Source: a virus
Lineage: Duplodnaviria; Heunggongvirae; Uroviricota; Caudoviricetes
IMG/VR virus record: IMGVR_UViG_2660238269_000006
Reading direction: 5' to 3' (one strand)
DNA length: 47,498 nt
The translations under genes were made by a program, and so were the position numbers. Positions 18,026-19,871 of the stretch are shown piece by piece; the stretch's first letter is position 1; each line of letters begins with the position of its first letter. Under the pieces are notes generated by a model, which saw only the letters and a program-made list of their open reading frames with translations, was not told where the DNA came from and did not search any database.

Positions 18026-18050
18026 AGGCTCGCTTTTGCGGGCCTTTTTT
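18026..18050 (+). terminator. Intrinsic terminator after the tRNA cluster
   Basis: aggctcgc / gcgggcct stem (one G-U pair) followed by TTTTTT; shares the GGCCTTTTTTGTAT tail with the hairpin at 18623. Confidence 0.5.
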
Positions 18051-18102
18051 GTATCTGCGTTACACCATTAACTAATAAATCGAGTGCTTATCAGGAGGCT
18101 AT

Positions 18103-18327
18103 GTGAAAAAACTGATGGTGACGATTGGTCCGTTCGAAACAGAAGTTAGTTTTCGTGTTGTTCAGGGGGAGAGTGTACTTGTTGAAGATGTATTTCATGG
18201 AAAATCAACAGGTCCTTATGTAAAAGAATATCTTATCGACGCCACGGATGAAAATATTGAGGTGGTGTACGATTCCGTCAATCACCCTGATTTGATCATT
18301 AAGGCAAAATTGAAGCCACTTTATTGA
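18103..18327 (+). CDS. Hypothetical small protein (74 aa), cargo gene in the stx slot
   Basis: GTG start 4 nt after AGGAGG (alternative ATG at 18115); AT-rich relative to flanks; no recognisable family. Confidence 0.45.
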   Translation: MKKLMVTIGPFETEVSFRVVQGESVLVEDVFHGKSTGPYVKEYLIDATDENIEVVYDSVNHPDLIIKAKLKPLY

Positions 18328-18379
18328 TCTGACCGGGAGCAATCATAAAATATCTCTGGGTACCCACAAGGAGATAAAT

Positions 18380-18589
18380 ATGTTTGTTTCTGAAGTGTTA
18401 ATGGAAGATAAGGACAACAAAGGATGGGTTAAAGGTTGGGCTGTGGTAAGAAGCTCGCCCTGGCATCTTGTTGGGGTTTTTGCGACAGAGGAAGACGCAG
18501 AAACGGAAGCAAGAAAGATGGGAGATAAGTACGAGGTTCACTATGGCTCGCATCGAACAGGAAGTGATGATTTTGTCTGGGGGGTGTAA
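18380..18589 (+). CDS. Hypothetical small acidic protein (69 aa), cargo gene in the stx slot
   Basis: ATG with RBS AAGGAGA at 5-nt spacing; followed by a terminator; no recognisable family. Confidence 0.5.
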   Translation: MFVSEVLMEDKDNKGWVKGWAVVRSSPWHLVGVFATEEDAETEARKMGDKYEVHYGSHRTGSDDFVWGV

Positions 18590-18622
18590 CAGTCGTTTAA
18601 CCCCAGAATAATCCCGTAACTG

Positions 18623-18647
18623 AGGTCGCTATTGGCGGCCTTTTTTG
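18623..18647 (+). terminator. Intrinsic terminator after the two-gene cargo cassette
   Basis: aggtcgc / gcggcct stem followed by TTTTTT, with the same GGCCTTTTTTGTAT tail as the hairpin at 18026. Confidence 0.5.
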
Positions 18648-18778
18648 TATCCGCGCCACGCCCGGCGCATATCAACCACAGAGCCTTTCGGGGGTGAGCT
18701 TACGGAGTGGTCAGCGTGACTTTCTCTGTGGGCAGATCGCTCCCGGGCGTTGGCTCACCCACCCAAAGGAACGTCACG

Positions 18779-19210
18779 ATGTTTGGTATTTTCAAAAAGA
18801 AAACCCGCAGAGCAGCAGCGGAAATTAAAAAGTTTGAGAAACGTGATCTGGCACAGGCGGTTATTAATGCTGCCTATCTGGTGGCCTATGCAGATGGTGA
18901 ATGTGAGGCTTCAGAGAAAGCGAAGATCGAGCAGGTCTTGCGTAACCAGCCAGCGTTGTCCGCGTTTACGTCAGAAATTAATGCTATCAGTGCCACGATC
19001 ACAGGTCAGCTTGACACCAACTTTAAAATTGGTCGTCGAGCGGCGTTGCGTGAAATTGAAGATGTGAAACACGATACGCGTGAAGCGGAAGATGTGCTGG
19101 ATGTGGCGGTGGCCATTGCTGAAGCAGATGGTGAAATTGAGCCGGAAGAGCGTAAGGTTCTGGAAGAGATTGCTGGTGTTCTTGGCCTGCGACTGGAGAA
19201 CCACCTGTGA
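18779..19210 (+). CDS. TerB-like domain protein (143 aa)
   Basis: Two A-x-A-DGE-like motifs (AAYLVAYADGECEASEKAKI and VAVAIAEADGEIEPEERKVLEEIAGVLGL) typical of the TerB fold; RBS AAGGA upstream. Confidence 0.5.
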   Translation: MFGIFKKKTRRAAAEIKKFEKRDLAQAVINAAYLVAYADGECEASEKAKIEQVLRNQPALSAFTSEINAISATITGQLDTNFKIGRRAALREIEDVKHDTREAEDVLDVAVAIAEADGEIEPEERKVLEEIAGVLGLRLENHL

Positions 19211-19371
19211 CGGTAAAACTGCGTCTGGCCGCTGTGGCACTCCTGCTGTTTCTGGTGGTGATGGTGGATTTCACCAGCAGGATCATGTCGGTGCTGGCGG
19301 ATGGAGTGCTGGTGGTCGGTATTGTGGTGGTGCTTTTTCCTTTGGTGAAAAAGGACATGCCAGGTAGTTAG
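19207..19371 (+). CDS. Small two-helix membrane protein (54 aa)
   Basis: GTG overlapping the TerB-like stop (GTGA); highly hydrophobic (LRLAAVALLLFLVVMV...VLVVGIVVVLFPLV). An in-frame ATG at 19261 would give a 36-aa version. Confidence 0.3.
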   Translation: MTVKLRLAAVALLLFLVVMVDFTSRIMSVLADGVLVVGIVVVLFPLVKKDMPGS

Positions 19372-19614
19372 CCGGGTATCAGTCATGCCCCGAAAATTTT
19401 AAATGTCTCACAATTCAGACGGTTGACAGTTGTCTGTTTTGCGGGGAGTTTGTTAAAAGAAACAGGCATGATGAATCCCCCTGAGCGGAGGGGCATAATG
19501 ACAGATGTTTGGTTGCGTATTGTATAGGCAAGTTGCGGATTCTGTCTGGTCATTGCAGAATTCACCGGGAGGCACCCGGCATCATGCTGTATACAGAGAT
19601 TAGGCATATATCCA

Positions 19615-19640
19615 GGCTCCTCATCGCAGGAGCCTTTTTA
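19615..19640 (+). terminator. Intrinsic terminator (plus strand)
   Basis: ggctcct / aggagcc stem followed by TTTTT. Confidence 0.5.
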
Positions 19641-19645
19641 CATGC

Positions 19646-19674
19646 AAAAAAAGCCCGCATGGTGAGATGCGGGC
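19646..19674 (-). terminator. Intrinsic terminator (minus strand), back-to-back with the previous one
   Basis: gcccgcat / atgcgggc stem preceded on the plus strand by AAAAAAA, which is a T-run on the minus strand. Confidence 0.45.
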
Positions 19675-19871
19675 AGCAAGGAATAAACAACAAAACGTGA
19701 AGTAATCAATTTTTCAGCTGGCGAATAATACCCGACAGTAATCACTCTGCGCAACTGCGCGGCCTTTTTCGTATTGCGGGCTGTAGTCTTCCTCCTGCCA
19801 TTGTCCTGTAACTTCCGGACTTCAGCCCGCCCCTCATCTGACTCACAACATTATCCCGACCGGGAGGATTC

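Follow-up and report, generated by a model that had tools for sequence, protein, structure and literature searches.

The locus described here raises the question of how a small block of cargo genes comes to stand exactly between two transcription terminators that end in almost the same letters. It lies in a 47,498-nucleotide stretch of DNA from a virus of the class Caudoviricetes (IMG/VR virus record IMGVR_UViG_2660238269_000006), the whole of which is referred to below as the window. Judged by its genes, the window is a lambdoid, Shiga toxin (Stx)-type Escherichia coli prophage without stx, and the region in question is its cargo slot between the antiterminator gene Q and the lysis genes. The original prediction was that three terminator hairpins, each ending in GGCC, a T-run and a GTAT tail, delimit the cargo genes of this slot, and that their reuse reflects modular insertion by recombination at terminator-like junctions. 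The comparative check proposed with it, an alignment of the copies and of the homologous junctions in related prophages, was run over about 300 loci; it supports the first two copies, and the third is weak. The best explanation, which is held to be probable, is that the hairpins are insulating terminators read through by Q-modified RNA polymerase and that the GGCC, T-run and tail would serve as a short homology for the gain and loss of morons, both the termination and the recombination steps being read from the sequence.

Three terminators with a common end

The three hairpins and the direct repeat contained in the first two are as follows.

18026–18059, plus strand: copy 1, the terminator of the tRNA operon (stem-loop 18026–18045, T6 18045–18050, tail GTATCTGCG 18051–18059)
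18041–18059, plus strand: left direct repeat GGCCTTTTTTGTATCTGCG, within copy 1
18622–18655, plus strand: copy 2, the cassette terminator (stem-loop 18622–18642, T6 18641–18646, tail GTATCCGCG 18647–18655)
18637–18655, plus strand: right direct repeat, within copy 2
19747–19774, plus strand: copy 3, a 5'-truncated terminator preceding nanS-p (6-bp stem, CC, T5, CGTAT)

Copy 1, with a stem of 8 bp and the loop TTTT, folds well (−14.8 kcal/mol, z = −3.8), and copy 2, whose 9-bp stem includes G-U pairs and carries the loop AUU, folds adequately (−12.7 kcal/mol, z = −0.9). The 6-bp stem of copy 3 (19747–19762) is weak (−9.1 kcal/mol, z = −0.4) and does not abut its T5 (19765–19769): two unpaired C stand between them, and half of the GGCC lies inside the stem. 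A GC-rich stem-loop followed directly by at least five T/U, which defines an intrinsic terminator, is found in full in copies 1 and 2 and in a weak form in copy 3. All three lie on the plus strand at the 3' side of a same-strand unit, copy 1 being 12 nt past argO, copy 2 32 nt past the stop codon of the second cassette gene, and copy 3 after a pair of small RNA (sRNA) genes. In relatives, the loop variants TTTT, TTCG, TTTG and TACG and some changes in the pairs leave the fold at −12.8 to −15.9 kcal/mol; few of these changes are truly compensatory, and the stem of one class (class E) is broken. The three copies are predicted to act as Rho-independent terminators within a late operon that is antiterminated by Q, as part of the explanation given above as probable.

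Copies 1 and 2 have in common the perfect 15-mer GGCCTTTTTTGTATC, which extends to 19 nt with one T/C mismatch and to 37 nt at 81% identity without gaps, and they are spaced by exactly 596 nt. Beyond the T-run, eight of the nine tail positions are the same in both. Two other strong terminators of the same stretch, at 19614–19635 (plus strand) and 19674–19653 (minus strand), lack the shared tail.

That three hairpins share the GGCC, T-run and GTAT tail is borne out by counting. The motif GGCCTTTTT(N)GTAT occurs at three sites in the 47.5 kb of the window, against 0.01 expected, and each site is a plus-strand hairpin followed by a T-run; the pattern GGCCTTTTTN{0,1}GTAT also has three matches, against 0.01 in dinucleotide shuffles, and 0 of 100 shuffles reach three. 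The original prediction was to fail if the motif proved to be a generic terminator sequence of similar frequency throughout the genome, a condition that did not hold. In 1.97 Mb of related prophage DNA, the 14-nt motif is confined, with a single exception from an unrelated high-GC phage, to four kinds of position, namely the argO and copy-2 terminators, the terminator preceding the esterase gene and another cargo terminator. The 19-mer was found at 92 loci in 596 Gb of bacterial genomes (about 1.5e-10 per base), those listed being from unrelated taxa. Unrelated terminators can therefore converge on this sequence, though very rarely; the matches listed from these bacterial contigs are chance terminators, and no donor context for the cassette was seen among them. 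That the three copies are generic terminators which resemble each other by chance is scarcely credible: those 92 bacterial loci and the one unrelated phage speak for it, and it is opposed by the excess within the window, by the frequency elsewhere and by the absence of the motif from any other terminator of the related prophages. For copies 1 and 2, chance resemblance is effectively refuted.

An empty site with the exact junction

The two copies enclose a compact cassette.

18060–18655, plus strand: the 596-bp moron unit, in one of 15–19 equivalent registers, with two small genes and its own terminator
18103–18327, plus strand: cassette gene 1, 74 amino acids, GTG start, function not assigned (PHROG 2571, unknown function)
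18380–18589, plus strand: cassette gene 2, 69 amino acids, function not assigned (PHROG 4280)

The claim that copies 1 and 2 bracket these two genes is confirmed by a presence/absence polymorphism whose ends lie in the terminator tail. In phage Evi a single terminator is found, in which the hairpin of copy 1 is combined with GGCCTTTTTTGTATCTGCG and with the sequence that flanks copy 2 on the right (CCACGCCCGGCGC…). Of 5426 complete E. coli genomes, 826 matched a synthetic 415-nt empty junction in one piece and across 80% of it or more, the best matches being up to 99.0% identical. A close view of the event is offered by a sister prophage (locus L325, from E. coli CFIAFB20190157), which has the same protein accessions for RusA, Q, the methylase, TerB and the DUF3927 protein. 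Its flanks are 99.2% identical over 3210 nt up to position 18059 and 98.7% identical over 869 nt from position 18626, and the two alignments overlap on one terminator, AGGCTCGCTTTTGCGGGCCTTTTTTGTATCCGCGCCACGCC, which combines the copy-1 hairpin with the "C" tail allele of copy 2. The window thus differs from its sister by one 596-bp unit (for example 18060–18655) with a direct repeat on each side.

The 5' half of copy 2, GAGGTCGCTATTGGC, occurs only at the 3' end of the cassette and never beside argO, and copy 2 therefore looks like a chimera, in which a cassette-specific 5' half is followed, from GGCC onward, by a target-type 3' half that includes 9 nt of the leader of TerB. Both the T and the C tail alleles exist among empty sites.

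The same polymorphism could be read in the opposite direction, with the cassette ancestral and the empty alleles as deletions that arose when two old copies of the terminator slipped or crossed over unequally. Direct repeats do favour deletion, the hybrid expected of it is carried by the empty allele, and the presence of both tail alleles among empty sites is also in its favour. This reading is nevertheless unlikely, as the base composition of the cassette is foreign and its sequence nearly invariant, empty sites outnumber it about eightfold and vary much more in their loops, flanks and tails, and in other phages homologous gene pairs stand elsewhere.

Reassortment of hairpins and tails

The related loci were taken from IMG/VR and chosen for carrying the motif or argO, and the ends of their homology to the window were mapped between positions 15000 and 23000 (513 right-hand and 452 left-hand ends). 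The copy-1 hairpin adjoins argO in 177 of its 184 occurrences. Nine or more different sequences follow this argO hairpin, diverging 0–13 nt past the T-run; among them are stx2, the TerB leader, the cassette and the sRNA block, which is then joined directly. Six or more different tails follow a second hairpin type (AGGCTGCGC-loop-GCGYGGCCT), and each of the three hairpin types occurs with the TerB-leader tail GTATCCGCG. In the L021 group, a second, unrelated cargo shows the same layout, with homology again beginning at GGCC.

By far the commonest breakpoint is the T-run and tail of the argO terminator, with 192 of the 513 right-hand ends at 18048–18063, while 95 of the 452 left-hand ends fall at 18626–18637; these counts, which are not independent events owing to shared ancestry and come from loci preselected for the motif or argO, show a hotspot but not its cause. 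The insertion/deletion also ends in the repeat, and the part of the original prediction that placed modular recombination at terminator-like junctions is supported for copies 1 and 2; for copy 3 it is weak.

In one related locus (L122) the ileZ-argN-argO triplet is present twice (3579–3828 and 5498–5749), 1.9 kb apart, each time with an argO-type terminator, which leads into the sRNA block in the first case and into the TerB leader in the second. Hairpins of the argO type (AGGCTCGC-loop-GCGGGYCT) are also seen away from argO, before a holin gene in a Salmonella prophage (L320, 2840–2880) and upstream of a cargo gene in L021 (5965–6010). The sequences suggest that terminator copies get relocated.

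The third copy

The claim that copy 3 delimits the cargo genes, beyond the TerB pair, was not upheld. The TerB module ends at about 19334–19397 without such a terminator, an STnc100-type sRNA gene and a convergent terminator intervene, and copy 3 accounts for only 1 of the 452 left-hand breaks (locus L014). At its position more than 40 of 72 loci have the full form AGGCTGCGCAACTGCGYGGCCTTTTT (−15.7 kcal/mol), of which the window has lost the AGG of the 5' arm, replaced at the junction with a minus-strand sRNA module. The tail reads CGTATTGCGG, CGAATTGCGG or TCATTTCTTGG in relatives, including CGAAT and TCATTT, and the element of Stx2a phages reads GACC...CGAAT; because the tail varies in this way, GTAT is not constrained here.

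Copy 3 is probably a relic of hairpin type 2 with its 5' arm cut by another junction. In the L021 group this hairpin type is fused to GTATCCGCG and terminates another cargo gene, so that common ancestry explains the likeness of copy 3 better than chance does. Most probably, what makes it look like copies 1 and 2 is descent from common terminator parts, which are reshuffled at the T-run.

A model for cassette gain and loss

In the lysogen, the terminators would insulate the tRNA operon, the two-gene moron and the sRNA/esterase region from each other and from the lysis genes, stopping transcription that starts at the tRNA promoter or at such promoters as the cassette or the sRNA may have. After induction, RNA polymerase modified by Q would read through them from the late promoter pR'. 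Insulation and read-through are proposed here because of established lambdoid biology, in which both Q read-through and a "moron site" downstream of pR' are well documented (PMC4104026, PMC3594210, PMC6266700). Copy 1, the ileZ-argN-argO terminator, is the fixed left edge of a hypervariable cargo slot. The cassette would be gained or lost by crossover inside GGCCTTTTTTGTATC.

Two routes can be envisaged. In the first, a circle carrying the cassette and one terminator is integrated, or looped out, in the manner of Campbell. Recombination of such a circle with a TerB-type target bearing the C allele would give exactly the arrangement of the window, with the T allele on the left and the C allele on the right, and the reverse event would give exactly the allele of the sister prophage. 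In the second, which fits equally well, a double crossover takes place with a donor flanked by the same repeat. Either might be catalyzed by phage Red/RecT-type or short-homology recombination, and exchange at short or diverged homologies by Rad52-like phage recombinases has been described (De Paepe et al. 2014, PMC3945230).

Several points weigh against this model. With 15 nt, the perfect repeat falls below the minimal lengths given for efficient pairing by Red-beta (23–27 bp) and RecA (31–34 bp) in De Paepe et al. 2014 (PMC3945230), so crossover events would be rare. A donor context in which the cassette has one and the same terminator on either side was not found, nor was a circular form, and the promoter scan gave no convincing promoter ahead of cassette gene 1. 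The folding of copy 2 is no better than that of shuffled sequences (z = −0.9) and that of copy 3 is weak (z = −0.4). The breakpoint counts are subject to the shared ancestry and preselection mentioned above, and selection for the tRNA terminator alone would place surviving junctions just past it.

The last point is the core of the main rival, random illegitimate joining followed by selection, in which junctions form at any position, the repeat has no role in recombination, and only those junctions survive that keep the tRNA terminator and terminate the incoming genes. The 9 nt GTATCYGCG would then come from repair of a staggered break, and GGCCTTTTTT would be no more than a stretch that both terminators possess. 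Phage mosaicism and morons are classically explained in this way (PMC3594210), and the explanation agrees with the many junction classes 0–13 nt past the T-run, which is where selection would put them, and with a 15-nt repeat shorter than the quoted pairing lengths; moreover, the terminators of the diverged cassette homologues already end in GGGGCTTTTTTGTATG or GGGGCTTTTTTATG, so part of the likeness predates insertion. It accounts less well for the tail past the T-run, which is unneeded for termination and yet is the same at eight of nine positions in both copies, for the unrelated cargo of the L021 group, whose homology starts at GGCC in the same layout, and for the empty allele, which is precisely what a crossover within the repeat would leave. 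The data are compatible with recombination at terminator-like junctions and also with random joining and selection for intact terminators; the latter is considered possible but the less likely of the two.

The preferred model, crossover inside the terminator repeat, recalls the idea, reportedly due to Susskind and Botstein, of "linker" or boundary sequences between modules. Module linkers are short conserved border sequences across which the flanking modules reassort, as is seen at the argO terminator. In contrast to them, the shared segment here is only 15–37 nt, below efficient pairing lengths, and is itself a predicted terminator.

The two-gene cassette

The G+C content of the cassette is 0.39–0.43, compared to 0.50–0.58 in its flanks. 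It is present in 110 of 5426 E. coli genomes and is at least 99% identical in 102 of the 110. For gene 1 the search found near-identical relatives only, and its product is 35% identical to gp60 of phage mEp237; gene 2 has homologues in Salmonella, Xenorhabdus and phage mEp237 (gp61, 65%). Searches of Pfam, NCBIfam and PADLOC for the function of the cassette gave nothing usable. The 69-residue product of gene 2 was modelled confidently by AlphaFold2 in one of five runs (predicted local distance difference test score of 92.9), with four long strands, a short fifth and one helix; a search of the PDB with this model found no significant fold match. The only sigma-70-like site of the cassette, matching at 9 of 12 positions, is at 18324–18351 preceding gene 2.

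Diverged homologous gene pairs, each with a predicted terminator of its own, stand at other positions in mEp237 (L319, NC_019704), where the pair follows Rz at 924–1450, and in an unrelated contig (L322), where it lies at 2189–2704 beside a P22 antirepressor-like gene and a Band_7 gene. The terminator of the latter also reads TTTTTTGTAT, with the end GGGGCTTTTTTGTATG. A Salmonella prophage has the same cassette beside argO and keeps copy 2 with GTATCC; the TerB leader is gone, and copy 2/GTATCC is fused directly to the 3' part of an STnc100 gene. At the DNA level the cassette is absent from both GenBank phages and plasmids, which supplied no donor. The one partial copy examined (H114), truncated by an IS3 insertion, has gene 2 only and adds no new context. 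In some O145 strains an IS3-family element has severed gene 1, leaving gene 2, copy 2 and TerB (L326, E. coli O145 RM8988-C1, 533–1820). Between the cassette genes, GACCGGGAGCAATCAT (18331–18346) resembles the ribosome-binding site and start of the esterase gene, GACCGGGAGGATTCAT (19858–19873), at 14 of 16 positions, which may be a relic of an earlier junction or chance.

The 596-bp unit is a phage moron of the ordinary kind, though its recombination joint is unusually clean. It has the features of known morons as described in the classical account given together with phage mosaicism (2012, PMC3594210) and elsewhere (PMC4104026): it is extra DNA relative to a near-identical phage, here the sister prophage, its G+C content is deviant, and it has a predicted terminator of its own, copy 2. 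It sits downstream of Q and pR', exactly at the stx position of Stx phages. It differs from known morons in that no clear promoter was found for gene 1, and in having at its ends a direct repeat, 15/19 nt long, that corresponds to the 3' part of the target terminator. To our knowledge, such a repeat is not part of the usual descriptions of morons.

A site-specific mobile element, either an integron-like cassette with an attC-like hairpin or an insertion sequence (IS) or miniature inverted-repeat transposable element (MITE) with a 9-bp target duplication, would also be compact, and it would explain both the hairpin at the end and the 9 bp of GTATCYGCG. The likeness to integron cassettes is a loose one, in that a compact, promoter-poor cassette ending in a hairpin could circularise and re-enter a like site, leaving direct repeats. 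The boundary GCG|TTACACC, however, does not fit the core GTTRRRY, and the hairpin of 20 nt with its T-run is an intrinsic terminator rather than an attC of 57–141 nt. No attC architecture or IntI accompanies it, the neighbours being tRNAs, a methylase and TerB, and the cassette is not a member of that family. As to an IS or MITE, terminal inverted repeats were looked for at the cassette ends and none were found, no transposase or integrase lies in or beside the cassette, and the 9-bp duplication is contiguous with a further 10 nt of repeat. A mobile element of either kind is thus very improbable.

The TerB leader and the tail

The tail of copy 2 runs into a conserved leader.

18656–18778, plus strand: conserved leader of about 125 nt upstream of TerB, of which the "GTATCYGCG" tail is the 5' continuation (43 variants)

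The leader contains a GCGCC-ACGCCC-GGCGC hairpin and a long inverted repeat, CCACAGAG...CTCTGTGG. The predicted fold pairs CCUUUC with the Shine-Dalgarno sequence AAAGG, which would hide the ribosome-binding site; only one pair covaries (G-C in 28 variants, A-U in 12). Rfam has no match to the leader. A related leader precedes holin-like or lysis genes instead of TerB in two loci (L273, L228). The G-run of the leader (GGGGG, 18694–18698) varies from 4 to 12 G among related prophages (L003, L016, L082, L119), which could be due to slipped-strand mispairing or to assembly error. Two candidate relationships were rejected. The leader was proposed to be present also upstream of mEp237 gp62, but nhmmer with the 43-variant profile gave no match (E > 10), and a shortened leader upstream of stx2A reached only E = 3 over the first 33 nt with nhmmer, so that the claim is kept for the tail of about 20 nt only.

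The place of the tail at the opening of this leader raises the alternative that the tail is a functional signal acquired independently by each terminator, such as a −35 or UP-like element or an RNA-processing site, and not a trace of ancestry or recombination. The TTGTAT in the T-run and tail resembles a weak −35, and on its minus strand copy 3 overlaps a plausible −35 of the convergent sRNA (TTGCGC, 18 nt, TATTAT). However, none of the three tails has a site with at least 9 of 12 matches in the promoter scan, suitably spaced −10 candidates agree, by eye, at 3 to 4 of 6 positions, the tail of copy 3 is free to vary in relatives, and the argO hairpin tolerates its many different tails. An independent signal is accordingly regarded as quite improbable.

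The prophage and its cargo slot

Gene order in the region is RusA, Q, DNA methylase, tRNA-Ile2, tRNA-Arg(TCG), tRNA-Arg(TCT), copy 1, the 74- and 69-amino-acid open reading frames and copy 2, followed by TerB/TciA, DUF3927/TciB, the STnc100-family sRNA, a convergent minus-strand terminator, copy 3, a NanS-p type esterase and holin. The features around the cassette are listed below.

15268–16089, plus strand: Q antiterminator gene (Pfam Antiterm 5e-52; RefSeq "antitermination protein")
About 16120–16193, plus strand: late promoter and tR' terminators (terminator-like sites 16123–16139 and 16169–16186)
16663–17721, plus strand: DNA methyltransferase gene (Pfam N6_N4_Mtase 6e-44; RefSeq)
17762–18013, plus strand: phage tRNA operon with tRNA-Ile2 (CAT, ileZ type), tRNA-Arg(TCG) and tRNA-Arg(TCT) (argN/argO type) (ARAGORN, Rfam, RefSeq)
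18779–19371, plus strand: pair of TerB/TciA-like (143 amino acids) and DUF3927/TciB-like (54 amino acids) genes (Pfam TerB 1e-16, DUF3927 3e-16; PHROG 632, 1470)
19437–19645, plus strand: STnc100-family sRNA gene with its own terminator at 19614–19635 (Rfam RF02076, 170 bits, E = 1e-38)
19653–19674, minus strand: convergent terminator (−14.9 kcal/mol, z = −4.5)
19872–21839, plus strand: NanS-p type SASA carbohydrate esterase gene (Pfam DUF1737, SASA, DUF6645; RefSeq)

Over the cassette segment searched, the window is 100% identical to strain CFIAFB20190167. The minus-strand terminator may be the 3' end of an AgvB/AsxR-like anti-sRNA, an identity given by analogy only, because the Rfam AgvB and AsxR models have no match at E ≤ 1 in the minus-strand unit (19653 to about 19717). 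The sequence read on that strand places a plausible promoter of this convergent sRNA (TTGCGC, 18 nt, TATTAT) across copy 3. A convergent sRNA pair at the moron insertion site downstream of pR' is known from prophages of enterohaemorrhagic E. coli (Tree et al. 2014, PMC4104026), and the layout of the window agrees with it, the convergent pair and the esterase gene coming after the moron as they do there. In the sister prophage, an IraM anti-adapter gene (4228–4563, minus strand) lies between DUF3927 and the esterase, at about the position of the STnc100 3' part and the convergent terminator of the window, which is another swap in the slot. Rfam also places a C4 antisense RNA with an adjacent isrK at one end of the window and a sok antitoxin RNA near the other (4833–5021, minus strand; 44598–44756, plus strand).

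In Stx2 phages, the ileZ-argN-argO triplet and the copy-1 terminator stand directly upstream of stx2A; the terminator reads ...GGCTCGCTTTTGCGGGCCTTTTTTATATCTGCGCC (also given as …GCGGGCCTTTTTTATATCTGCGCC) and is followed by the stx2A upstream region. The tRNAs and copy 1 of the 933W/Sakai-type phages are the same element as in the window, and the slot behind them holds stx2AB in those phages as opposed to the two-gene cassette and TerB/TciB here. The prophage is therefore a relative without stx that carries other cargo in the toxin slot. A literature search for ileZ/argO with the terminator and stx found nothing, and one for tciA/tciB returned unrelated papers only.

Implications for the cargo of Stx-type prophages

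It was already known that morons can carry terminators of their own, that there is a moron site behind pR', that the tRNA cluster precedes stx2 and that mosaic exchange occurs at stretches of short homology. The two-gene moron in the stx slot, the empty allele exact to the nucleotide and the reassortment of terminator halves and tails at the T-run are new. The slot behind the argO terminator, which is the site of the Shiga toxin genes in Stx2 phages, is here occupied by an uncharacterised two-gene moron.

A wider proposal, offered tentatively and with the odds against it, is that lambdoid prophages exchange the cargo of their stx slot preferentially by crossover at intrinsic terminators, which would act as "linkers". 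If this were true, a GGCC stem base, a T-run and a few tail bases would let hairpin halves and the modules downstream of them reassort, and terminator-bounded morons could loop out as circles and re-enter any related terminator, a homology-driven, integrase-free counterpart of integron cassettes. It could also explain why stx stands immediately after the argO terminator. Should the terminators do no more than mark the places where selection spares junctions, the locus would be a tidy example of textbook mosaicism. The near-isogenic empty allele fixes the junctions to the nucleotide, and makes this slot a clean natural case for studying how cargo enters and leaves the late operon.

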